Sequence record: MT611523.1
Direction: 5' to 3' (one strand)
From: Escherichia phage DK-13
Length of the DNA stretch: 64,000 bases
The position numbers and the translations under genes are program-made. Below, in pieces: positions 298-53,689 of the stretch; the first letter of the stretch is position 1; each line of letters opens with the position of its first letter. The notes under the pieces are model-generated. The model did no database searches. It saw only the letters and a program-made list of their open reading frames with translations, and was not told where the DNA came from.

Positions 298-3200
298 ATG
301 ATGAGTGTTAAAGCCCCTTATGTAACCAGCTTACGGATTGATAAACTATCTGCTAACCAGGTTAGCATAAAATGGGATAATGTTGGCGCCAACTTTTATT
401 ATTTTGTTGAGATTGCTCCGACAAAAGAAAATGGTGTTGCTATTCCAGAAGAAAATCTGTTATGGAGGAATTTAGGTTATACTCCAGACAATGAATGGTT
501 CGAACAAGATTTTATTCGTCCAGTATCATTTTACAAAATGCGTGTTGCTGTTGCAGCAATGGGTTTTGAACAATCTGATTGGGTTTATACCGAAGAATTT
601 GAAACCTTTGCAACTAACGCATACACATTTGAACACATGCGTGAGTTTACATTAACAAATAAATTCATCGAAGAAAAATTCACAAACAATAACCAGGCTT
701 ATATCAACTTTAATAATGATGCAATTATGGCATCGCTGATGTCTGAAGATTTTAGCTTTACTCCTGCTTATTCTCATTTGTCTTCAATTTCAAACTATGT
801 ATTAAAAGAAGACCAATACCATGAAATTCAGGGTAGTATTCAGCCGGTGTGTAACGATGTTAATCGTACGATGATTGCTGAACTCGGTGGTGTACTGTAT
901 TTGTTTGAACGATTCCAGACAACTGTCAAAGTCTCCAATGATAAAGGGCAGAACTGGTATTATGTAAAATTGTTTAATGACCGTATCGGTAACCCAGTAT
1001 CGCGCACAATTTATTATCAATCAGATACGACAACTTATGTACTCGGATATGACCGAATTTTTTACGGTCGTAAATCAAGTGACATAAGATGGTCTGCTGA
1101 TGATGTTCGATTCAGTTCTCAGGATATAACATTTGCAAAAATTGGTTCGGATATCAATCTCGGATTTGATATTGAAATATTTGGCACATACGCAAGACTC
1201 CCGGCATATATCTCAACAATTGCCGAAGCAATTACTACGACCGATTCCATGATTTACGTTGCTGGCCGCGACCGTGTATACAAAGCTAAATCTTCTGATG
1301 CTCCAATTGATAACGACCCTAACTCCCCAACATTCGGTGAAAAATTATTTGAAGCTGGATATAGCACAATAAGCGGCAATCCAAAAGCTGTTTGTTACAA
1401 GATGGATTCAATTGACGGTGAAGTATTTGCATTAATCACGGGTGAAGTAAAGGAAGAACGCCAAGACCCGACTAAGCCTGAAAACGTTGTCGATTCATTA
1501 TCAAAGGGCGTTTATAAATTAAATACCGATACCGATACATGGACACGAGTTTTTGGTAATACAGAGGATGAACGTCGCCGTATTGAACATGGTTACACAA
1601 GCATGTCAACTGATGGAATTGAACTTTTTATCAGTTCAAGTAACTTCCGTTATTCCGTTGAGCCAGATACCGAACTCCCTACTAAGTATCCTGAAGAAGT
1701 TAACGAAGCAGTCAAATATGTGTATGATGAACAATGGATACATGACAAGCATTATTTGATGATGAGTTTTAGGTCAAATAAAGATTCAGGTTGGGAAGAG
1801 TTTAAACCTGGACGTATGTCATATTACGCTGAACCGTTCTTTAACTGGTCTCGCCGTGATGATACTCGTTGTTGGATTACCACATCAGACAGAGCTCTGG
1901 TTGTATATAATGACATGCTGTATCAAAAGATTATCGATACCTTTGGTGGTTCATCCCCTGAACGTATTGTACACGAATACTGGAATAAAGGTCAAGTAAA
2001 AGTTACTTCTCCTAACATCGAATTCAATGGCTTTAAAAAATATGCCTCGGGTATTATGTTACATAAAAATACTGGTGAGCTTATTGGTTATTTTGAATTT
2101 GACTATCGTATGCGTGATGAAGTTAGATTAATCTGGAAACCGAAAGAAGTTATGTTCACTGCAGAATTACAGAACCAGGAACATGATATTCCATGGACCC
2201 CGGATAATGATGAACAAGAGAAAGACCCGGACTTGCGTCCTCTTTTAACAAAGATGGTTCCGGATAGTTATTTGCTCCAGGATAGCAACTTCGAAAAATT
2301 CTGTGAATATTATTTGCAGTTTATCAGTGATGGCTCTGGCACATATTATAACAACCTTTTGAACTTGATTCGCAACCAGTACCCACGCGAGGAAGATGCA
2401 TGGGAATACCTTTGGAGTGAAATGTACAAAAGAAACATATATTTGTCAAAGACCAAGCGTGACGAAGTAGTTCGTTTCTTTGAAGCAAGACAGTCTGATT
2501 TTTGGGCAACCAAGGGGACTGAAGCATCCTATAAGTTTTTATTCAAATTGTTATATAATGAAGACGTTGAAATCGATATTGAATCCAAGAACGGAACCGA
2601 GTATGACATAATTGTCGAATCTGATAATATCAGCGAAGATATTGTTGGGCAAACAATTTACACACCAACCGGCCGCAGTAACGTTACCTATATGGAGCGT
2701 GACTACAAACAGGGTAAATTGAGATGGCGTATCACGATTCATAACTTGCTTGGTCGCTTTATTGTTGGGCAAGAAATTAAATCCGAAAGGACTTCCTTTG
2801 AAGGCATGATTGTTCAGGGCGTTCGCGGGAAAGAATTGCTTAGCAACAACATCGATTATATCAACCGAAATCGTTCTTACTATGTAATGACCATTAAATC
2901 AAGTCTCCCGACATCTCGTTATCGTAATGACGTATTGCGATTTGTTCATCCGGTTGGATTTGGATTTGTTGGAATTACATTATTGACAATGTTTGTTAAT
3001 GCTGGTCTGTCATTAAAACATACAGAAACCATTATCAATAAACTGAACAACTATCGTTGGTCGTCGGGTATTCCGTCAGAATGGTGTGACCGTATTGCAG
3101 TTATTGGAGCCGATGGAAACATTGAGCATAATGCTGTTACAGGCGAAGCAGTATATAATATTGCTCCTAACGCAGGTTTACCGTTCCCATTACCGGCAGA

Positions 3201-3396
3201 TTATGATGCCGAAAACGATTTTTCAGATTTTCATGGGACTCTCCCGTCTGAACGTCGTAAAAAATACAGTCCATTGTTTGACCAGTCTGCCGTGACTTTT
3301 GCGAACTGGCGCAATTTGGTTAATCAACGTCTTAAGGATGATATTGGTAATCCACGCGACCCGAAAGACCCATCACAGGTAAAGGTAAATGAATAA
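298..3396 (+). CDS. gp7: Baseplate wedge protein gp7
   Basis: 1032 aa from ATG 298, same length as T4 gp7; N-terminus MMSVKAPYVTSLRIDKLSANQV matches recalled T4 gp7; RBS AAGGA upstream. Confidence 0.9.
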   Translation: MMSVKAPYVTSLRIDKLSANQVSIKWDNVGANFYYFVEIAPTKENGVAIPEENLLWRNLGYTPDNEWFEQDFIRPVSFYKMRVAVAAMGFEQSDWVYTEEFETFATNAYTFEHMREFTLTNKFIEEKFTNNNQAYINFNNDAIMASLMSEDFSFTPAYSHLSSISNYVLKEDQYHEIQGSIQPVCNDVNRTMIAELGGVLYLFERFQTTVKVSNDKGQNWYYVKLFNDRIGNPVSRTIYYQSDTTTYVLGYDRIFYGRKSSDIRWSADDVRFSSQDITFAKIGSDINLGFDIEIFGTYARLPAYISTIAEAITTTDSMIYVAGRDRVYKAKSSDAPIDNDPNSPTFGEKLFEAGYSTISGNPKAVCYKMDSIDGEVFALITGEVKEERQDPTKPENVVDSLSKGVYKLNTDTDTWTRVFGNTEDERRRIEHGYTSMSTDGIELFISSSNFRYSVEPDTELPTKYPEEVNEAVKYVYDEQWIHDKHYLMMSFRSNKDSGWEEFKPGRMSYYAEPFFNWSRRDDTRCWITTSDRALVVYNDMLYQKIIDTFGGSSPERIVHEYWNKGQVKVTSPNIEFNGFKKYASGIMLHKNTGELIGYFEFDYRMRDEVRLIWKPKEVMFTAELQNQEHDIPWTPDNDEQEKDPDLRPLLTKMVPDSYLLQDSNFEKFCEYYLQFISDGSGTYYNNLLNLIRNQYPREEDAWEYLWSEMYKRNIYLSKTKRDEVVRFFEARQSDFWATKGTEASYKFLFKLLYNEDVEIDIESKNGTEYDIIVESDNISEDIVGQTIYTPTGRSNVTYMERDYKQGKLRWRITIHNLLGRFIVGQEIKSERTSFEGMIVQGVRGKELLSNNIDYINRNRSYYVMTIKSSLPTSRYRNDVLRFVHPVGFGFVGITLLTMFVNAGLSLKHTETIINKLNNYRWSSGIPSEWCDRIAVIGADGNIEHNAVTGEAVYNIAPNAGLPFPLPADYDAENDFSDFHGTLPSERRKKYSPLFDQSAVTFANWRNLVNQRLKDDIGNPRDPKDPSQVKVNE

Positions 3397-4393
3397 TTCA
3401 TCTGTAGTTTATCGTTCGATAATTACCTCGAAATTTCGAACTGAAAAAATGTATAACTTTTATAAAATGATTGGTAATGAGCCCGACCAGAATACGATGT
3501 ATGTAACGTTCGGTCGTGCTGAACCCTGGGCTTCGAATGAGAATGACCCGGGGTTCGCCCCTCCTTATCCGGTTGACACAGCACAAGGTGTTGAAGATAC
3601 TTGGACAAATATGATGGGTGCAGTCAAAGTTTATAAGTCAATGCTTGATTGTGTTGTCCCACGTAAAGACTGGGGCGATATCAGATATCCCAATCCGCTT
3701 AACTTCCAGGTAGGGGAAATTGTTGTAGCTAACAGTGCTCCGTATAACCGAACTGATGTTGGTAAAGGTTGGATGGTTTATCGTTGTGTAGACGTTCCTG
3801 ATGTTGGGACTTGCTCCATTTATTCTATTATCAATAAAGAAGAGTGTTTAAAACTCGGTGGTAAATGGACTGCAGAATATAACTCGACGAGAGCTCCAGC
3901 TGGGACTGGTGATACAGAAGGACGAGTCGATATGGGCGATGGTTATCTCTGGGAATATTTGTATGAGATTCCACCTGATGTATCCATCAACCGTTGTACT
4001 AACGAATATATTGTTGTTCCATGGCCTGAAGAAATCGAAGAAGACCCATCACGTTGGGGCTACAAAGACAATATCAGCTGGCAACAAGATGATTTCGGTT
4101 TAATATACAGAATCAAAGGATATACAATCAGATTTAAAGCATTTATGGATTCCATTTATTTCCCAGAGTTCAGTCTTCCAGGGAACAAAGGCTTCCGCCA
4201 GCTGTCGATTATATCCAACCCACTTGAAGTTAAAGTACATCCTAATGACCCAAATATCAAAGCAATCAAAGAATACTACGATGCAATTGATTTGGACCGT
4301 CATTCCGGGGAAATGATTTATATGGAAAACCGCCCACCGATTATTCGTGCAATGGACCAGACAGAAGAAGTTAACATTATTTTTGAATTCTAG
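3389..4393 (+). CDS. gp8: Baseplate wedge protein gp8
   Basis: 334 aa as in T4 gp8; position after gp7; start overlaps gp7 stop. Confidence 0.85.
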   Translation: MNNSSVVYRSIITSKFRTEKMYNFYKMIGNEPDQNTMYVTFGRAEPWASNENDPGFAPPYPVDTAQGVEDTWTNMMGAVKVYKSMLDCVVPRKDWGDIRYPNPLNFQVGEIVVANSAPYNRTDVGKGWMVYRCVDVPDVGTCSIYSIINKEECLKLGGKWTAEYNSTRAPAGTGDTEGRVDMGDGYLWEYLYEIPPDVSINRCTNEYIVVPWPEEIEEDPSRWGYKDNISWQQDDFGLIYRIKGYTIRFKAFMDSIYFPEFSLPGNKGFRQLSIISNPLEVKVHPNDPNIKAIKEYYDAIDLDRHSGEMIYMENRPPIIRAMDQTEEVNIIFEF

Positions 4394-4396
4394 CAA

Positions 4397-4418
4397 GGGA
4401 CCTTCGGGTCCCTTTTTT
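4397..4418 (+). terminator. Hairpin GGGACC-TTCG-GGTCCC plus T-run after gp8
   Basis: Perfect 6-bp GC-rich stem, tetraloop, T stretch (coordinates approximate). Confidence 0.7.
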
Positions 4419-4422
4419 ATTC

Positions 4423-4430
4423 TATAAATA
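4423..4430 (+). promoter_or_regulatory. T4-type late promoter TATAAATA upstream of gp9
   Basis: Exact TATAAATA about 30 nt upstream of start. Confidence 0.65.
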
Positions 4431-4457
4431 TAGCTATATCAATAACGAGGCTTACCT

Positions 4458-5327
4458 ATGATTAATCAAACCCCAAAATTATTAGTAGACATCGGCGAGA
4501 TTGGTAACGCCAGCACCGGTGATATTCTATATGAAGGCGGTCGTAAACTGAACGTGGATTTAGACAGTTTGTATAATACATTCGGCGACCAGCGTCTGTA
4601 CTCTGTGAACAATGGAGAAAACTCCCAGGTACTTCATGCTACTGGCTACTATCAAAAAGCCACAAATATCATCGAATGGAACTCGACTGTTGCCCTCGGT
4701 TCTATGCGGGATGTCAATACTGCCGAAGGTGTTATCACTGCAAGAATTGCAAAAGGTAAAGCAGGCGAAGGTGTTATCTTTATTAACTCCAATGGTTCAT
4801 TATCCACCTCGTTGCCTCTGGAAGTTGAACTACAAGGCACGGATTCATTCCTGACTGCTGCAACGAACAAAATGAAATTTACTCAGCCTTATACAAAAAT
4901 TACATTGTGGTGTATTGACGATGCTAACGGCGTAGGGACCTGGGACTACAAAATTGAAAGTATGTTTGGCAACCAATCTGTATTGCTCGACAAAACATAC
5001 AATATGAGCTCGGTTGTTCGTGATATTCCACTTGCTTTCCGCGCAGATTATAAAACTATCAAATTGATGCTGACAGCTATTTCAACAGACGAAACTAAAT
5101 ACAAAGCATCAGAAATATTACTTTACATCGACCTTAAGGACCGCAAGGTATATAGCACAGAATACGCTGTAATCAGACGTGGACAAACTAATGAAGAAGA
5201 TGAGATATATGCCATCGATTTTAGAATTGATAACCAGGATATCATTCAGGCGGCTATAAGCTCACCCACTGCCATGAAGCTCGCTGTTAAAGTAATTTCC
5301 GCCCAAACAATCGGAGTACCGGTATAA
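4458..5327 (+). CDS. gp9: Baseplate wedge / long tail fibre socket protein gp9
   Basis: 289 aa; GEIGNASTGDIL...HATGYYQK matches recalled T4 gp9. Confidence 0.85.
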   Translation: MINQTPKLLVDIGEIGNASTGDILYEGGRKLNVDLDSLYNTFGDQRLYSVNNGENSQVLHATGYYQKATNIIEWNSTVALGSMRDVNTAEGVITARIAKGKAGEGVIFINSNGSLSTSLPLEVELQGTDSFLTAATNKMKFTQPYTKITLWCIDDANGVGTWDYKIESMFGNQSVLLDKTYNMSSVVRDIPLAFRADYKTIKLMLTAISTDETKYKASEILLYIDLKDRKVYSTEYAVIRRGQTNEEDEIYAIDFRIDNQDIIQAAISSPTAMKLAVKVISAQTIGVPV

Positions 5328-7138
5328 TGAAACAGAATTTAAAAATTGGCAATATGGTTGATGATGGTACTGGTGATTACCTTCGTCTCGGCGGTCAAAA
5401 AATAAACAATAACTTTGACGACCTTTATTATCAGCTGGGTGATGGTGAAAATCCTCATGCGGCTGGTGCATGGAAAACTTGGACTACACAAGAAGGCACC
5501 GAGTTGTCTGCTGTTATGGGTCGAAGCTATACCATCGATACATCAGCCGGTGCGGTTCGAGTCGTCCTCCCGAAAGGAACAACTCAAGAATACAATTATG
5601 TAATTCGCTTGCGTGACGTGTTTGCTACCTGGCAAATCAACCCGGTGACAATTGTTCCTGCAGTCGGGGATACGATTAAAGGCTCACCAAATCCAGTAGA
5701 AATTAAACGCAACTTAGCTGACCTTGAACTTGTATATTGTTCACCAGGTCGTTGGGAATATATCGATAATAAACAAGTCGATAAAATTTCAAATAACGAC
5801 GTTGCTACGGTTGCATCCCAACAGTTTATTGCTACCGAAGGACAAACTGACTTTATCAATGTGTTTGGTGCTATTCCGTATAGCGTATCGAACTTAGAAG
5901 TCAAACATCGTGGTAACGACCTGTTTTATGGTAAAGATGATATTTTCGACCCGGTGAATGCTGAATTTGGTTCCCCTGGTGCAAACCCTGGCGAAATTGT
6001 TGCGCTTGACGGCAAAAGCATCCGTCTGAAAATGCCATGCGCCGAAGGTGATACGGTTATCATCCGAACATTTAATGATGGTATTGCACAATGGCGTAGT
6101 TCGTATAATCGTCGTGATGTACTTGTTCGTAGTCAGGACAGGACCAAAGAAACAACAATTAATGGTTCTTTGATTGTTACAGATTTGACAACCAAACACA
6201 CCTTTACAATTGAAGAACTTGGTATTTCTCCGGGTAGTCCAATTAACCCAAACGCATGTCAGGTATTCATTAACAGTATTTTACAACACCAAGCCGGGAC
6301 TGCAGGAACTCCAGTATTTTATTGCGAAGGTGCACAAGGTTCCACTGCGGCAGAATGTAGCGCAAATGGTGGCAGTTGGTCTGAATCAACCCAGGATTAT
6401 TTGCTGCAATTTGATGATGACAACCGCATCGAAGGTATTAGCATTTATCGTGAATTTGAAGACGGTGATATTCTGTCGGTCATTTGGTACAATAACGATA
6501 TCGGCACAACTATGACCATGGATGAAATCCGTGATGAGACTGACACTCTTTATGTTTCTCAGGGAAATACATTGAGCCTAACTGGTCGTGTACGTATTAC
6601 AGATTTTGATAATCCGTTTGCACCAAACGTTGAACCGGTCGGTCTTCAGGAAGTTGTTCCATCTTCTGTTGGCGCTATCTTTGAATTATTCTATCCGGTT
6701 GGTACAATTTACGAAAATACGGTTAACCCGAATAACCCGGTTACTTATATGGGATTCGGTTCATGGAAACGTTTGAAAGAACGTGTAATCGTTGCCTGGT
6801 CTGATGACCCTGCCTCAAACTTCCATACAAACAATAATGACCTGGATTCTGGTGGTAACCCACAAGCGACAGCGGGTGGCACAGGTGGCAGTGTTGAAGT
6901 TCATATTAAAGATATAAACGTACCTAAACTTGAAACCGATGAGAAAGTTTTGGTTGTTGATGATAATGGTCCGATTGTTGTTGGCGGTTGTCAGGTAGAC
7001 CCAGATGCACAAGGTCCAGCCTATACCAAATACAGAGAAGACAAAGCCACTATTAATCAGGCGCAAGACCCTCAAGCTCAACCGGTTTATACAATGCCTC
7101 CATATTTGATTGCTCATCGCTGGGTAAGGATTGCTTAA
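5327..7138 (+). CDS. gp10: Baseplate wedge protein gp10
   Basis: 603 aa; strong match to recalled T4 gp10 at both N-terminus (MKQNLKIGN..DDGTGDYLR) and C-terminus (RWVRIA). Confidence 0.9.
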   Translation: MKQNLKIGNMVDDGTGDYLRLGGQKINNNFDDLYYQLGDGENPHAAGAWKTWTTQEGTELSAVMGRSYTIDTSAGAVRVVLPKGTTQEYNYVIRLRDVFATWQINPVTIVPAVGDTIKGSPNPVEIKRNLADLELVYCSPGRWEYIDNKQVDKISNNDVATVASQQFIATEGQTDFINVFGAIPYSVSNLEVKHRGNDLFYGKDDIFDPVNAEFGSPGANPGEIVALDGKSIRLKMPCAEGDTVIIRTFNDGIAQWRSSYNRRDVLVRSQDRTKETTINGSLIVTDLTTKHTFTIEELGISPGSPINPNACQVFINSILQHQAGTAGTPVFYCEGAQGSTAAECSANGGSWSESTQDYLLQFDDDNRIEGISIYREFEDGDILSVIWYNNDIGTTMTMDEIRDETDTLYVSQGNTLSLTGRVRITDFDNPFAPNVEPVGLQEVVPSSVGAIFELFYPVGTIYENTVNPNNPVTYMGFGSWKRLKERVIVAWSDDPASNFHTNNNDLDSGGNPQATAGGTGGSVEVHIKDINVPKLETDEKVLVVDDNGPIVVGGCQVDPDAQGPAYTKYREDKATINQAQDPQAQPVYTMPPYLIAHRWVRIA

Positions 7139-48284: not shown

Positions 48285-48584
48285 TTAAAGGACAAGCAGT
48301 GTCTCGGTCTGCAGTCCATTCACGGAAATCAATTTATTGAAACAGAATGAACGCCATTCATTAAGCTTGGTATCAAATACCCGGATATAGCTAACTGGTT
48401 CTTTATGAGCTTCTGGTCCAGGGGCCTGGATTTCTTTATACGGTAGCAGGTCCAGGTCGCGAGTACAAGTCATACGACGAACGCTGCCATCTGCTTTTTC
48501 AAACAGAACTTCATGAAAGCCAACAGACAAGATAGTCTTGACTTTTTCACGAAGACGAATTGTTTCTTGTTCAGTTAAAATCAT
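48285..48584 (-). CDS. Hypothetical protein (31.1 position)
   Basis: 99 aa; synteny. Confidence 0.5.
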   Translation of the reverse strand: MILTEQETIRLREKVKTILSVGFHEVLFEKADGSVRRMTCTRDLDLLPYKEIQAPGPEAHKEPVSYIRVFDTKLNEWRSFCFNKLISVNGLQTETLLVL

Positions 48585-48586
48585 AA

Positions 48587-48820
48587 TTATTCCAAAACAG
48601 TTTTAATAGTGGTTGCATTACGCTCTTTTAGAGCACGCAATAGATGGTGACAATTTTCAAGAATAGGCACCGTTTTATAGTTCGTTTCGGCGCGAACCCA
48701 CTCGGATTTATAGTACGATTTCCAGCGAGAGAAAAAGTACTTTTTGTATTCTACTGAATAGGCTACTAAGCTTTCGCCTTTTGAGTTTAGCCCTGAAAAT
48801 TTAACTAGACGAAATTTCAT
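48587..48820 (-). CDS. Hypothetical protein (31.2 position)
   Basis: 77 aa; synteny. Confidence 0.5.
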   Translation of the reverse strand: MKFRLVKFSGLNSKGESLVAYSVEYKKYFFSRWKSYYKSEWVRAETNYKTVPILENCHHLLRALKERNATTIKTVLE

Positions 48821-49401
48821 TATTCACCACAAAATTCGTTAATGTTTTCCCAGTTCAATTTGTCTAGACTACGCTTAGGCACATTGAACACCTCAATTCC
48901 TGCATTCTTCAGGATATCATCCCAACCAGGAATATTCTTATCATACGTTTCACAGTAAACCAATTTCTTGATTCCTGATTGAGAAATTGCCTTTGCACAA
49001 TCAGGGCAAGGAGAAAGCGTCACATACATAGTAGCGCCTTCAATTGACGAACCCATTCTGGCTGCGAACAGAATTGCATTAAGCTCGGCATGAATTTCGT
49101 TGTTCTTTGACCAGGCCGAATGAGCTTCGCGATGAGCTTTCGCCAATACAAAACGGTCAACCTTACTGAATCTCACACATTCTGGCTTGTGACCAGGGAC
49201 GAGAACAGGTTTAGGTTTATTCAGTAACCAACCTTGCTCTTCCGCATGCTCGCAACAGTTGACCCCACCTGCAGGGGAACCATTATACCCTGTAGAAATA
49301 ATGCGGCCATTCTTTTCAATAACAGCTCCCACTTTCCAGGAGCAACATTTGGATTCTTGAGATACAAGGTATGCGATTTGCAGAACAGTAGTTGGTTTCA
49401 T
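48820..49401 (-). CDS. cd: dCMP deaminase
   Basis: 193 aa as in T4 Cd; zinc-binding deaminase motifs CEHAE / HAELNAI and PCPDCAK. Confidence 0.9.
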   Translation of the reverse strand: MKPTTVLQIAYLVSQESKCCSWKVGAVIEKNGRIISTGYNGSPAGGVNCCEHAEEQGWLLNKPKPVLVPGHKPECVRFSKVDRFVLAKAHREAHSAWSKNNEIHAELNAILFAARMGSSIEGATMYVTLSPCPDCAKAISQSGIKKLVYCETYDKNIPGWDDILKNAGIEVFNVPKRSLDKLNWENINEFCGE

Positions 49402-49737
49402 TTACATCACCACGAGATAATTGGTTTTAATAGTTTCAACACGATATAATTCATGTCGCAATTTAGTAATGCTCTTAACATGTGTTGTAATTATACTATC
49501 ACCATCGCTGAAGCGTTTTTTCTTATCGTCAAAAATCACCCCAAACATTCGCTCACCAATTTCTACAGGAGCTTCTGTGATAACAACCGCATCATAATTA
49601 CTTGGGTGAATACTTTTAAACAGAGCATCATTCGCAAGCGTTACTTTGATAAATGCAGTTGTTTCTGGGTCCAACTTACGATGGTCACCTAAATCATTTT
49701 TAAGTGATTCTTTGAAAATATCCATTAAATTCATCAT
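49402..49737 (-). CDS. Hypothetical protein
   Basis: 111 aa; cd-proximal small gene. Confidence 0.5.
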   Translation of the reverse strand: MMNLMDIFKESLKNDLGDHRKLDPETTAFIKVTLANDALFKSIHPSNYDAVVITEAPVEIGERMFGVIFDDKKKRFSDGDSIITTHVKSITKLRHELYRVETIKTNYLVVM

Positions 49738-49979
49738 TGAATATACACTCGCTGCGCTTCAACCAGACCATCAGAACCCAATTTCAGTTGGGTCAACTGG
49801 TCACCACCTTTTAGAGTAATTTTCGGATTAATGACAATCATAAAACTGCGTGCAGATTCCTGAATAACTTGCAAAGTCGCAGCAGGGAATCGCTGTGATA
49901 CGCGGTTAATCATCTCTTGAGCAAATGCCTTCACTTTTTCGTGGAACTCTTCAACAGTAATTGGGGTTTCGCTAAGCAT
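49734..49979 (-). CDS. Hypothetical protein
   Basis: 81 aa, overlapping start/stop with neighbours. Confidence 0.5.
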   Translation of the reverse strand: MLSETPITVEEFHEKVKAFAQEMINRVSQRFPAATLQVIQESARSFMIVINPKITLKGGDQLTQLKLGSDGLVEAQRVYIQ

Positions 49980-50521
49980 CAGATTGTCTCCTGTTTTACT
50001 TGTTTAACGATAGAAGCTTTTGTGATATCGCCTTTGATAATATAGCAATCTTCAACAGTACCACGGTTTAACAGACGCTCTGCTTCGCCTTCCGCATATT
50101 CTTTTGACACATGACGAGAGTTAATCTCAATCTTGCCATTTTTAACCACAAGCAATTTCCAAACTGATGCAAGTTTTACTGGCACAGGTTCAACTTCTGG
50201 CTTAACACCAACTTCTGCCTGGATGAAATAATCAAATTCATCAGACAATGGACCAGCAGAAACAAACATTGCCCCATGATGCCTGTTCTGTGTGCCAGAT
50301 ATTTTTGGCAAATCCACAAAATCATTTTCATCAATCAAACGAATCTCACAAACTTTTTTACCGCCGCTGATGTCATCGGATAAAATCTTAACTTCAAACG
50401 GAGTCATACCGATGTATCCAGCAATTTGGTAATTGGCTGCCCAGCCTCCGGCAATAAACTGTTTTTTGGCATTTTCAGATACAAATTTGTAAAACTTACC
50501 TTCTTCAAAGAAATCGCTCAT
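49979..50521 (-). CDS. Hypothetical protein
   Basis: 180 aa, no motif recognised. Confidence 0.5.
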   Translation of the reverse strand: MSDFFEEGKFYKFVSENAKKQFIAGGWAANYQIAGYIGMTPFEVKILSDDISGGKKVCEIRLIDENDFVDLPKISGTQNRHHGAMFVSAGPLSDEFDYFIQAEVGVKPEVEPVPVKLASVWKLLVVKNGKIEINSRHVSKEYAEGEAERLLNRGTVEDCYIIKGDITKASIVKQVKQETI

Positions 50522-50581
50522 TTTGTTTTCCTCATGTGTTGATGAAATTCATTATACACCATCCATGGTGAAAGTAAACAC

Positions 50582-50860
50582 TTAAATTGCTTCGACAACT
50601 ACCGTTTGTTTCTGGAAGTCCATTTTGCATGAAATAGCCAAAATATGGTTATCAATTTTAAATGGAACAATTGCAAATGCTGCACCAGGCGTGAGTTGAA
50701 CAGTGATTGCATCAACTGCATCCGGGAACATGATTTCCAGAATAGCAGACAAACGACCGTGCACTTTTAGTTCAGTCGACACGTCGACGCTTTCGTATAG
50801 ATAATCAGATACAATCTGACTAAAAAGTACTTTAACAATTTCAGAATATGTAGGAAACAT
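50582..50860 (-). CDS. Hypothetical protein
   Basis: 92 aa; MotA-type promoter just upstream. Confidence 0.5.
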   Translation of the reverse strand: MFPTYSEIVKVLFSQIVSDYLYESVDVSTELKVHGRLSAILEIMFPDAVDAITVQLTPGAAFAIVPFKIDNHILAISCKMDFQKQTVVVEAI

Positions 50861-50889
50861 TTCTTTTCTCGCTTAGTTATTGGGGTATC

Positions 50890-50932
50890 CAAAGGACCTA
50901 GACCCCATTATACCATAAAATTTTTAAAGCGT
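50890..50932 (-). promoter_or_regulatory. Middle (MotA-box-like) promoter upstream of the 92-aa gene
   Basis: Minus strand reads ACGCTTTA-N12-TATAAT-GGGGTCTAGG. Confidence 0.45.
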
Positions 50933-51147
50933 TAATGGACGGTATGCACCTTGACATTAACGATAAATCGGTCAATGACTTCAGTCAGCGGAACGAATTC
51001 AACATAATATTCGCCCTTGTACCGTTCGTTGATGTCATTACGCAGTGCAGCCAGGTTATTGATAAGAGCAGGAGACATATTCTGACCTACCAGTTTCTGA
51101 AGCTCTTTATAAGCTTCTTCTTCAACTTCATGGTGTTTGTTATACAT
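50932..51147 (-). CDS. Hypothetical protein
   Basis: Start set at internal ATG (MYNKHH...) so as not to overlap the upstream ORF. Confidence 0.4.
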   Translation of the reverse strand: MYNKHHEVEEEAYKELQKLVGQNMSPALINNLAALRNDINERYKGEYYVEFVPLTEVIDRFIVNVKVHTVH

Positions 51148-51337
51148 AATGTTCTTCCAAGAAGGCCAAGAGTTCTGGAGCGGATTTAAAGATACCGCCA
51201 TCGACCTTGTCTTCATCTTTATAGTCCATTACATCCAGGCCAATACGTCCATCAGTTAAAGGCCATACGCTGAAAAAGTATTCGTAACGTTTTTCAATCT
51301 CTTCGATTGTGCGAAAAATCTTTTCAATGTTATTCAT
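51140..51337 (-). CDS. Hypothetical protein
   Basis: 65 aa ORF. Confidence 0.4.
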   Translation of the reverse strand: MNNIEKIFRTIEEIEKRYEYFFSVWPLTDGRIGLDVMDYKDEDKVDGGIFKSAPELLAFLEEHYV

Positions 51338-51529
51338 AAGTTTTCCATGGTAATTGGATTCGAGTTTGTTTTACAGTAAGCTCGACCTCGGGATTCAATT
51401 TTTTCAATCGGAGACATTCTTCCCAGGCGTCTGATTCGTTACTGAACGTATAGAAACGGCCGTCAATAACTACAATCTTTTTCTGATTGGTAATATTAAC
51501 AATGGCCCAGGTATCGCAATAATAGCCCA

Positions 51530-51530
<1 letters not shown>
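51330..51530 (-). CDS. Hypothetical protein
   Basis: 66 aa ORF, start overlaps pseT stop. Confidence 0.4.
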
Positions 51531-52748
<1,218 letters not shown>

Positions 52749-52752
<4 letters not shown>

Positions 52753-53267
52753 ACACCAAGCTCCTTATAAAGTTCTTCGCGACAAGTTTTAAGGATTTTA
52801 CCAGTTTCATAAGCTGCGCTTTCAGAAACATCACCAAGTGTGGCGGCAGCTTGCATTTGACCATGGCGTTTAGCCGCATATTCAAAACTTTTTACCAGTT
52901 CACGAATACGTTCTTTTTCATTGTATTCTTCAATAAATTCTGGGTATTCCCAAACAGGTCGCATCATACGATACCAATGCTGAATAGTAATATAATTACT
53001 TCCATCCAGATTAATAATTTGCGAAGGCTTAATAGCGCCCGGGGCATAAAAAGTTACCTGTCTCACTACATCAATACCGTCCACAATAGCCCAAGCAAAA
53101 TTGAAAGTGGCCTTCTTTTCAATTGGTGTGCTTGCACAGGACCCTAATTTTAAGAGCTTTTGTAATACAGGAGATTTAACACCTGAAATGTATTCAGGCT
53201 TAGCCACAAAACTGTTATCACGTAATGTCATAATCATTTCCTCAAATTTTATTATCCGTGGGAGCAT
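52749..53267 (-). CDS. Hypothetical protein
   Basis: 172 aa ORF (true start may be an internal Met). Confidence 0.45.
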
Positions 53268-53398
53268 TATACTCTGCTCCCATGAGTTTGTACACTATTT
53301 TCCAAAAAGACCTTGAATATGCAAAGTGGTCGCAATTCCAAAACAAAAACAGAATGCACCAAATCTAACAATATCCCAACCAAGGCTACAGGTCTCTA

Positions 53399-53689
53399 TC
53401 ATTTGCAACGTTCCTCTTTTAGTTCAGAACGATAATAACATAACATACCTTTTTGGTCATGTACATATCTTTTTACATCATTCATCCAAATCCTGAATTC
53501 TTGCGATGCCTCAAAAGGCATACCAACCCACGGCTGACCTTCAATTACCTTCACTTCCCATTGCTGCTTATAATCAGCCAATGCAGCAGGCCAATTAGGA
53601 TGAACTTGGATTGTGGGCTCCACAACGGGCTTCTGGGCGCACGAAACGAGCCCAATAGCCAAACATACTGCCATGATAGATTTCATCAT
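53399..53689 (-). CDS. Putative outer-membrane spanin (lipoprotein)
   Basis: Signal peptide with lipobox LVSC-A; 4-nt overlap with upstream inner-spanin-like gene. Confidence 0.6.
   Translation of the reverse strand: MMKSIMAVCLAIGLVSCAQKPVVEPTIQVHPNWPAALADYKQQWEVKVIEGQPWVGMPFEASQEFRIWMNDVKRYVHDQKGMLCYYRSELKEERCK

Follow-up and report, generated by a model that had tools for sequence, protein, structure and literature searches.

Seven small genes between cd and pseT in Escherichia phage DK-13 probably form a T4-like block of prereplicative genes

In phage T4, five small genes, cd.1 to cd.5 (NC_000866, T4p218-T4p222), lie between cd and pseT. A literature search returned no main-text discussion of these genes, and they were mentioned only in the supplement of a CRISPRi-ART study, in which knockdown of cd.1-cd.4 was scored 'Not Fit', that is, without a fitness effect (PMC11879866). 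The phages JS98 and SP18 carry annotated families for two further small genes, of which one (RB69 ORF227c / JS98 gp214) is also annotated in RB69 and the other is represented by JS98 gp212 and VR7 gp232. [quoted passage not shown] 2025 (PMC12152347). In that work GoF(D25Y) stabilised gene 41 mRNA, and the effect of wild-type GoF and of MotB.1 on an RNA reporter was small. For T4 middle promoters, the MotA box has the consensus wwwTGCTTtA, 12+/-1 bp upstream of a TAtaaT -10 element, and the mapped middle promoter Pcd starts within cd.1 (PMC2988021, Table 1).

We examined the corresponding interval in a 64,000-nt stretch of Escherichia phage DK-13 (MT611523.1), referred to here as the window. 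The source phage is a Gaprivervirus, a T4-like coliphage with 98.5% nucleotide identity to vB_EcoM_RZ, whose annotation has an identical set of seven CDSs between cd and pseT. We consider that the interval is an ordinary T4-like cd-pseT block of small prereplicative genes in its Gaprivervirus version, the fullest form known, and we assign this reading a probability of about 85%.

Gene content of the cd-pseT interval

The features of the interval are listed below, with gene names assigned by homology.

48820..49401, minus strand: cd, dCMP deaminase, the downstream anchor (87% identity to T4 Cd over 193 aa; phrog_174, E 1.4e-75; PF00383)
49402..49737, minus strand: cd.1 orthologue, 111 aa (60% identity to T4 Cd.1 over 111 aa, E 1.4e-50)
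49490..49514, minus strand: MotA-type middle-promoter motif within cd.1 (GCTTCA-N13-TATAAT)
49734..49979, minus strand: cd.2 orthologue, 81 aa, DUF7320 (53% identity to T4 Cd.2)
49979..50521, minus strand: GoF-family paralogue, 180 aa, JS98 gp212 / VR7 gp232 family (phrog_5804, E 1.1e-69)
50551..50579, minus strand: T4-early-type promoter motif in the 60-nt gap (GTTTACT-16-TATAAT)
50582..50860, minus strand: cd.3 orthologue, 92 aa, DUF7355 (42% identity to T4 Cd.3)
50907..50935, minus strand: putative promoter of the 71-nt gap, readable as MotA-type middle or as extended -10 sigma-70; a weak hairpin follows
50932..51147, minus strand: 71-aa gene, RB69 ORF227c / JS98 gp214 family (phrog_3609, E 2.6e-40)
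51140..51337, minus strand: cd.4 orthologue, 65 aa (54% identity to T4 Cd.4 over 65 aa, E 3.6e-27)
51330..51530, minus strand: cd.5 orthologue, 66 aa, T4_Y13H (52% identity to T4 Cd.5)
51530..52435, minus strand: pseT, polynucleotide 5'-kinase/3'-phosphatase, the upstream anchor (77% identity to T4 PseT; phrog_505, E 5.8e-121; PF25109 and PF13671)

In order from pseT to cd, the junctions measured -1, -8, -8, +71, +60, -1, -4 and 0 nt; the +71 and +60 nt junctions therefore represent two real intergenic gaps. The first-pass annotation, made from the sequence before any database search, had placed seven ORFs here between cd and pseT. All seven ORFs and both flanking genes were recovered on the minus strand, the ORFs at the positions given, and its length of about 72 aa for the fifth ORF agrees with the 71-aa start of the relatives. 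It had also described the ORFs as overlapping by 0-4 nt, which was inaccurate: the overlaps are 1, 8, 8, 1 and 4 nt, one junction is 0 nt, and the two gaps interrupt the series.

Every ORF matched a PHROG family (E 3e-26 to 1e-69), and three of the seven scored far above the Pfam gathering score. Protein matches to T4 cd.1-cd.5 had E values of 1e-24 to 1e-50 with 42-60% identity, and the PHROG numbers given for T4 cd.1-cd.5 in the supplement of PMC11879866 are those matched in this phage. The SP18 record names cd.1, cd.2, cd.3 and cd.4. These matches show that five of the genes are orthologues of T4 cd.1-cd.5 and that one belongs to the RB69 ORF227c / JS98 gp214 family. The content had initially been described as matching no known family, a view that does not survive comparison with PHROG, Pfam, T4 and the JS98, SP18 and RB69 annotations. 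The seven small genes are instead an already catalogued, dispensable block of T4-like phages. Homologues in the T4 interval exist for five of the seven, and a known function for none.

Full-length homologues were present in 84 to 916 phage records per gene, and dN/dS against orthologues was 0.04-0.5 for all seven genes wherever dS could be computed. Both observations show that the seven are genuine coding genes under purifying selection. PDB sequence searches with the seven proteins gave nothing below E 1e-3, NCBIfam gave only chance-level sub-threshold matches (E>=0.05), and an Rfam scan of positions 48500-53000 gave no match.

The cd.1 orthologue abuts cd with a 0-nt gap and matched phrog_2063 (E 1.7e-43 over residues 1-111), the PHROG that also holds T4 cd.1 (PMC11879866 supplement). 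It was found in 636 phage records (dN/dS 0.10-0.45). Its AF2 model was poor (pLDDT 59.6), with helices in the N-terminal part and strands in the C-terminal part, and Foldseek matched it in BFVD to uncharacterised T4-like phage proteins only. A relation of cd.1 to the GoF-like family or to the SH3-like-annotated gp31.1 was tried with hhalign and was negative for both. The cd.2 orthologue scored 106.6 bits against PF24005 (DUF7320; cut-off 27), with residues 1-80 aligned to profile positions 1-76 of 78, and occurred in 916 phage records (dN/dS 0.09-0.20). The proteins in the cd.2 slot of S16, Merlin and KMB17 were 26-34% identical to it, and all eight members compared, from eight phages, matched DUF7320.

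Similarly, the cd.3 orthologue scored 105.8 bits against PF24051 (DUF7355; cut-off 27; residues 1-92 on profile positions 1-93 of 93) and was present in 754 phage records (dN/dS 0.13-0.50). The cd.4 orthologue matched phrog_2360 (E 1.1e-36) and was present in 684 records (dN/dS 0.04-0.27). The cd.5 orthologue scored 87.7 bits against PF25744 (T4_Y13H; cut-off 27; residues 3-63 on profile positions 2-61 of 61) and was present in 499 records, with the allele of this phage occurring at >=99% identity in only five. The open frame of the 71-aa gene can extend to 94 aa; the 71-aa start is that used in GenBank relatives, and the phrog_3609 match begins at residue 24 of the longer frame and covers profile positions 1-71 of 71. 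This gene had the tightest constraint among the seven (dN/dS 0.04-0.09) and was present in 337 phage records, including Mosig-, Dhaka-, Gapriver-, Gelderland-, Moon- and Karamvirus among others. Its product had no match in the T4 cd-pseT interval.

Compared with T4, the block has the same position between cd and pseT, the same strand and the same order of cd.1-cd.5. The protein lengths in this phage and in T4 are 111/112, 81/76, 92/91, 65/66 and 66/75 aa, respectively, and the annotated T4 starts of cd.5 and cd.2 differ from those used here; at its 5' end T4 cd.2 carries an apparent frameshift. In both phages an early promoter directly follows cd.3. Two genes of this interval are absent from that of T4: the 180-aa gene, which follows the early promoter and precedes cd.2, and the 71-aa gene, which separates cd.4 from cd.3. 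Ahead of cd.3, this phage has the promoter-bearing 71-nt gap and T4 a spacer of 2 nt. The 71-aa protein shares 70% identity with its RB69 counterpart and 93% with that of JS98, and in those phages too the gene occupies the cd.4-cd.3 slot, with an overlap into cd.4. However, cd.3 begins 7 nt after the 71-aa gene in RB69 and JS98, and here the two are separated by 71 nt with the promoter-like element.

The 180-aa protein and GoF

The 180-aa protein is a member of the JS98 gp212 / VR7 gp232 family (phrog_5804), from which it shows no difference of substance. Full-length homologues in the Gaprivervirus records listed were 92-99% identical, and those in Dhakavirus 43-47%. The gene likewise lies between the early promoter and cd.2 in the Dhakavirus JS98 and in those Gapriverviruses that were examined; a 30%-identical relative in Winklervirus LC53 lies at another locus, near a 30.8-like gene. 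The family was present in 84 phage records (dN/dS 0.09-0.21), and only 20 relatives were recovered when 1.84 billion protein representatives were searched exhaustively with a profile. When an HMM of the family was run against all ORFs of the window, no second paralogue was detected.

Profile comparisons linked the N-terminal part of this protein to T4 GoF (comC-alpha). The 180-aa protein matched the goF-labelled phrog_2980 at E 1.6e-8 and phrog_622, the PHROG of T4 GoF, at E 1.3e-3; reciprocally, T4 GoF matched phrog_5804 at E 1.6e-5 over residues 1-99. Distant members of the 180-aa family matched both phrog_2980 and phrog_622 at E 1e-7 to 1e-11. Alignment of the family profile with T4 GoF by hhalign gave E 7e-6 and a probability of 84% over 48 N-terminal columns, and the same comparison with T4 MotB.1 found no similarity. 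Both GoF and the 180-aa protein are small, early-type proteins restricted to T4-like phages. They differ in length (141 aa for GoF), in locus and in their C-terminal domains, which are unrelated in sequence, and D25 of GoF, the site of the gain-of-function mutation, is aligned opposite Gly in the 180-aa family.

In the AF2 model of the 180-aa protein (pLDDT 72), the N-terminal domain, GoF-like in sequence, was followed by a low-confidence linker and a small alpha/beta C-terminal domain. The pLDDT dropped to about 50 for residues 112-116, which belong to a stretch rich in Pro, Glu and Val whose length differs among homologues, and residues 121-163 formed a separate beta-beta-alpha-beta unit. 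The GoF/MotB.1/Frd.2 family has the same layout, in which a flexible linker joins a beta-rich N-terminal domain to a C-terminal domain that varies (PMC12152347), but the five-stranded LSm-like sheet was not clearly reproduced in our model. Foldseek against BFVD returned 45 matches at E<=1e-3, the named ones among the matches listed being uncharacterised proteins mostly of T4-like phages; VR7 GoF, at E 1.1e-3, fell just outside that threshold.

Because Gapriverviruses also carry a canonical GoF (VR7 E5FIC3), and because the 180-aa gene lies at another locus, the 180-aa protein should be regarded as a paralogue rather than as the GoF orthologue. The profile matches identify it as a distant paralogue of T4 GoF by N-terminal homology. 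As wild-type GoF has little effect on the RNA reporter, 'RNA modulator' can be applied to the 180-aa protein only by analogy; by that analogy its most likely role would be to bind or modulate phage mRNA through the N-terminal beta-rich domain.

Promoter motifs and predicted transcription

The first-pass annotation had proposed an internal MotA-type promoter near 50890-50932. A promoter-like motif is present there, in the 71-nt gap, and reads taaCGCTTTA, 12 nt, TATAAT, with TG before the -10 element, agreement at 8 of 9 MotA box positions and an intact GCTT core. The same element can also be read as a sigma-70 promoter with an extended -10 (TTAACG-17-TGgTATAAT). The window holds seven motifs of the class GCTTYA-N11-13-TANAAT where 0.46 would be expected, and two of the seven lie in the cd-pseT interval. 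A MotA-type promoter in the 71-nt gap is plausible from these motif matches. The element is conserved in five Gapriverviruses, but with genomes about 95% identical this carries no information.

An early promoter motif at 50551-50579, in the 60-nt gap, had been overlooked. The early-type motif GTTTACT-16-TATAAT occurred once in the window, with 0.04 expected. In alignment, the T4 counterpart of the 60-nt gap is the region between cd.3 and cd.2, where the T4 -10 element predicts a start at about 133295, corresponding to Pe133295 of the T4 record. The leader downstream of the promoter, ATGAGGAAAACAAAATG, is common to this phage, T4 and JS98. We infer that the 60-nt gap contains an early promoter homologous to Pe133295, predicted to drive the 180-aa gene, cd.2, cd.1 and cd.

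The second MotA-type motif of the interval lies within cd.1, about 80 nt upstream of cd, and aligns column-for-column with T4 CCGCTTTA-N13-TATAAT; this conserved T4 site was counted 59 nt away from the listed Pcd start. Hairpins in both gaps were no more stable than in shuffled sequence (z -0.67 for the 71-nt gap hairpin). Terminator-like consensus matches numbered 4 across positions 48500-53500 against 3.3 expected, with none on the minus strand from pseT to cd.1.

From sequence and from homology to mapped T4 promoters, the genes would be read within a long leftward pseT-to-cd transcription unit. Three additional internal entry points may exist: the MotA-type or sigma-70 element before cd.3, the early promoter before the 180-aa gene, and the MotA-type site inside cd.1, before cd. 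Within each sub-block, the start/stop overlaps (TAATG, ATGA, ATGNNTAA) would couple translation.

Mosaicism and possible roles

The region had been proposed to be variable and accessory, and comparison across genera bore this out, with differing gene content and a mosaic of alleles within the genus. Gene presence and absence in the interval was mosaic across nine genera: T4 is without the 71-aa and 180-aa genes, JS98 and RB69 are without cd.1 and cd.5, and SP18 and VR25 have a MobE-like homing endonuclease, on the plus strand, in place of cd.5. Within the genus, identity dropped abruptly at single genes (56% for cd.1 and 68% for the 71-aa gene in VR25; 52% for cd.5 in MN01), and most neighbouring genes in VR25 and MN01 were 91-99% identical. 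Single-gene cassettes are probably gained, lost and swapped through recombination and homing-endonuclease traffic, and their products are probably individually dispensable accessory proteins that tune infection in particular hosts.

A more specific version of the accessory reading is that part or all of the block acts as a counter-defence island whose small early proteins inhibit host anti-phage systems. Such a role would account for genes that are variable, mosaic and dispensable in the laboratory. Presence/absence mosaicism and allele swapping are consistent with it, as are the early or middle promoter motifs, the T4 cd.1-cd.4 knockdowns without fitness effect in the laboratory host, and the adjoining pseT, which the T4 record annotation places in a counter-defence pathway that repairs tRNA in prr hosts. 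However, the proteins matched no characterised protein, anti-defence or other, including in the NCBIfam and PDB sequence searches. Among the PADLOC-DB defence models, six of the seven proteins had no match at E<=0.1, and cd.5 matched only PDC-M08A (E 0.0025, 16 bits), a model of a defence candidate and not of an inhibitor. The dN/dS of 0.04-0.09 in the 71-aa gene is also unlike arms-race evolution. We regard counter-defence as possible but doubtful. A compound proposal is somewhat less probable and is offered as speculation: the 180-aa paralogue would be an RNA-binding LSm-like protein that protects or times particular phage transcripts, a host-specific add-on of Gapriver-, Dhaka- and a few related viruses, and at least one of cd.1, cd.5 and the 71-aa gene would be a counter-defence factor whose allele swaps mirror host immune repertoires.

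It is very unlikely that cd.2 (DUF7320) is a DinI-like modulator of host RecA. The proteins are of equal size (81 aa) with an alpha/beta pattern that is similar by eye, cd.2 residues 16-45 matched Pfam DinI (PF06183) weakly (E 0.0075), and three of eight diverged cd.2 homologues matched DinI at E<=0.1. The match scored 17.0 bits, below the gathering cut-off of 24.2, the PDB sequence search gave no match, and the lead was dropped after hhalign of the cd.2 family against E. coli DinI returned a probability of 0.6% (E 0.096). Slightly less credible still is a ClpS-like adaptor mimic in the C-terminal domain of the 180-aa protein, which would disturb host ClpAP N-degron proteolysis. The alternative that some of the 65-81 aa ORFs are open by chance and are not genes, as their length and the antisense ORFs of like length in the interval might suggest, is refuted by full-length homologues across genera (30-70% identity in hundreds of phage genomes, conserved in length and position) and by the large excess of synonymous over non-synonymous change.

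Under the preferred reading, a T4-like block of small prereplicative genes, the interval means little as a discovery: dozens of near-identical genomes already list the products of its genes as hypothetical proteins, and PHROG or Pfam families exist for them. The gain is modest: seven 'unknowns' receive correct labels, as cd.1-cd.5, an RB69 ORF227c family member and a GoF-family paralogue. For assigning functions to the T4 cd.x genes, it is the Gaprivervirus that carries the fullest set. With the 180-aa protein, the LSm-like family proposed recently would gain one more branch, of narrow distribution. The interval also shows in clean form how single genes are exchanged as cassettes in the T4 superfamily, with promoters that stay fixed and genes that are inserted behind them.

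Coding content of the cd-pseT interval

Seven minus-strand ORFs had been placed at 49402-51530, between cd (48820-49401) and pseT (51530-52435), and the ORF list confirmed them at those coordinates, with lengths of 111, 81, 180, 92, 94, 65 and 66 aa. The fifth ORF is 94 aa at its longest and 71 aa from the ATG at 51147; we took it as 71 aa because this ATG is used in relatives and the match to phrog_3609 begins at residue 24. From pseT to cd, the genes are cd.5, cd.4, the 71-aa gene, cd.3, the 180-aa gene, cd.2 and cd.1, with junctions of -1, -8, -8, +71, +60, -1, -4 and 0 nt. The first-pass annotation described a run of 0-4 nt overlaps, which did not hold, as overlaps reach 8 nt and two real gaps are present. 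The junction lengths therefore define three tightly coupled sub-blocks, with the two intergenic gaps between them.

Values of dN/dS were 0.04-0.5 in all comparisons with a computable dS (orthologues from VR25, MN01, JS98, T4, RB69 or S16). Full-length homologues in phage records numbered 916 for cd.2, 754 for cd.3, 684 for cd.4, 636 for cd.1, 499 for cd.5, 337 for the 71-aa gene and 84 for the 180-aa gene. On sequence grounds, all seven ORFs are true genes.

The same annotation could not match the block to any known family, a statement overturned by the placement of all seven proteins in PHROGs (E 3e-26 to 1e-69) and of three in Pfam (DUF7320, DUF7355 and T4_Y13H; 88-107 bits, cut-off 27). Five proteins matched Cd.1-Cd.5 of the T4 reference interval with E values of 1e-24 to 1e-50 and identities of 60% (Cd.1, 111 aa), 53% (Cd.2, 81 aa), 42% (Cd.3, 92 aa), 54% (Cd.4, 65 aa) and 52% (Cd.5, 66 aa). 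The CRISPRi-ART annotation table (PMC11879866 supplement) gives T4 cd.1-cd.5 the same PHROG numbers. The 71-aa protein has no counterpart in T4's cd-pseT interval; it is 93% identical to JS98 gp214 and 70% identical to RB69 ORF227c, and Mosig-, Dhaka-, Gelderland-, Moon- and Karamvirus carry its gene in the same slot. In sum, the block comprises T4's cd.1-cd.5 and two genes of known families from outside T4, of which one encodes a paralogue of GoF. The original observation is real, and the content is already catalogued.

In searches for function, no relatives of the seven proteins were found in the PDB by sequence, NCBIfam matches were all sub-threshold and at chance level, and PADLOC returned a single match, at 16 bits. 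A weak DinI-like signal in cd.2 was lost on profile comparison, and this identity was rejected. The cd.1 model was poor, with structural matches exclusively to uncharacterised phage proteins. The seven are not all characterised T4 homologues with known functions: five match T4 genes of the interval, and the searches assigned a function to none of the seven.

In the T4 reference (locus L003, NC_000866.4, ~5225-5345, minus strand; window counterpart 49940-50000), the annotated cd.2 GTG start is preceded by an upstream ATG that has a strong Shine-Dalgarno sequence (GAGGAAAACAAAATG). This ATG opens a different frame, MLLSEKPITV, which matches the N-terminus of the window's cd.2 (MLSETPITVEEF), and the two T4 frames switch at AAAGGAATTC. 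Compared with other Tevenvirinae, T4 cd.2 seems to have a 1-nt indel or to contain a sequencing error.

The 180-aa protein and GoF

The 180-aa protein is a member of the JS98 gp212 / VR7 gp232 family. By tblastn against the phage collection, it occurs as a near-identical form in Gaprivervirus and a 43-47% form in Dhakavirus and related phages; the sole further match is partial and sits at another locus in a Winklervirus. Only 20 relatives emerged when 1.84 billion representatives were searched exhaustively by profile.

The protein matched the goF-labelled phrog_2980 (E 1.6e-8) and phrog_622 (E 1.3e-3), and remoter family members matched both at E 1e-7 to 1e-11. T4 GoF, whose own PHROG is phrog_622 (E 4.6e-38), also matched phrog_5804, the PHROG of the 180-aa family, at E 1.6e-5 over residues 1-99. 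Alignment of the family profile with T4 GoF by hhalign gave E 7e-6 and 84% probability over the first 48 columns. In the AF2 model (pLDDT 72), a Pro/Glu-rich linker of low confidence joins an N-terminal domain to a small C-terminal beta-beta-alpha-beta unit. Foldseek against viral models gave 45 matches at E<=1e-3, the named ones being uncharacterised and mostly T4-like phage proteins; VR7 GoF fell just beyond that cut-off (E 1.1e-3). Because VR7 carries both GoF and the 180-aa gene, the two are paralogues. GoF(D25Y), and not wild-type GoF, stabilises RNA of the gene-41 leader, and goF and motB.1 are dispensable (Kim et al., PMC12152347).

Promoters and RNA signals

The promoter-like element proposed near 50890-50932 is present in the 71-nt gap (50861-50931) as taaCGCTTTA, 12 nt and TATAAT. 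It fits the MotA box consensus with 12+/-1 spacing (PMC2988021) and can also be read as a sigma-70 promoter with an extended -10. The motif class GCTTYA-N11-13-TANAAT was seen seven times in the window, against 0.46 expected by chance. The interval holds two further sites:

49490-49514, minus strand: MotA-type motif GCTTCA-N13-TATAAT, inside cd.1, ~80 nt upstream of cd
within the gap 50522-50581, minus strand: predicted early promoter GTTTACT-16-TATAAT, from consensus match and T4 alignment

The motif inside cd.1 aligns with T4 CCGCTTTA-N13-TATAAT. The mapped T4 Pcd start, 132839, also lies inside cd.1 (PMC2988021), 59 nt further upstream by our own count. Judged by motif, the five other matches in the window (7908, 27609, 33279, 55957 and 60885) probably mark further MotA-dependent middle promoters of the phage.

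The 60-nt gap aligns with the T4 cd.3-cd.2 gap, where the -10 predicts a start at ~133295, corresponding to early promoter Pe133295 in the T4 record. T4 and JS98 share the promoter and the leader ATGAGGAAAACAAAATG, and directly behind the leader stands the 180-aa gene in the window and JS98, and cd.2 in T4. Promoter and leader have thus stayed fixed, and the change, an insertion of the 180-aa gene or its loss in T4, falls exactly behind them.

Rfam gave no match, and RNA structure in both gaps was not unusual. One of the two minus-strand GGAG sequences within 49402-51600 lies at 49988-49991, in the cd.2 Shine-Dalgarno sequence (cAGGAGac); T4 RegB endoribonuclease cleaves early mRNAs at sites of this kind. 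Upstream of pseT (52432-53267, minus strand), where T4 has pseT.1, are a 106-aa ORF with homologues in JS98 and RB69 and a 172-aa ORF with homologues in JS98 and Merlin, together with a promoter-like TGTACA-17-TATAAT at 53294-53266.

Variation among relatives

Positions 48820-52435 matched 277 phage records, 32 of them at a query coverage of at least 80%. Identity was 98.5% across the full length to Escherichia phage vB_EcoM_RZ and 94-97% to other Gaprivervirus members (Straboviridae, Tevenvirinae). The RZ record has the identical set of seven CDSs between deoxycytidylate deaminase and polynucleotide kinase, all labelled 'hypothetical protein'; the SP18 record names four CDSs cd.1, cd.2, cd.3 and cd.4 and refers two others to JS98 gp212 and gp214.

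Among nine phages compared, every gene found in the slot is present in the window and in RZ, both of which have cd.5 uninterrupted. SP18 and VR25 have there, instead of cd.5, a homing endonuclease gene that overlaps the 3' end of pseT:

SP18 (locus L001) 4079-4804 and VR25 (locus L011) 2776-3501, plus strand: MobE-like gene, equivalent to window ~51330-51530

Other Gapriverviruses probably also carry it, since their records match the query in two pieces with 94-95% coverage. Single-gene allele switches also occur within the genus: VR25 cd.1, the VR25 71-aa gene and MN01 cd.5 are 56%, 68% and 52% identical to the window, against 91-99% for most neighbouring genes (MN01 cd.3, 84%). Of the 499 records with cd.5, only 5 carry the window's allele at >=99% identity. 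In T4, CRISPRi-ART knockdown of cd.1-cd.4 had no fitness effect (PMC11879866 supplement).

The presence mosaic across the nine phages, the allele switches and the homing endonuclease bear out the earlier description of a variable accessory region. As a plastic accessory block, in which promoters are conserved and single-gene cassettes exchangeable, the region is typical of the T4 superfamily and contains nothing surprising to a T4 specialist.
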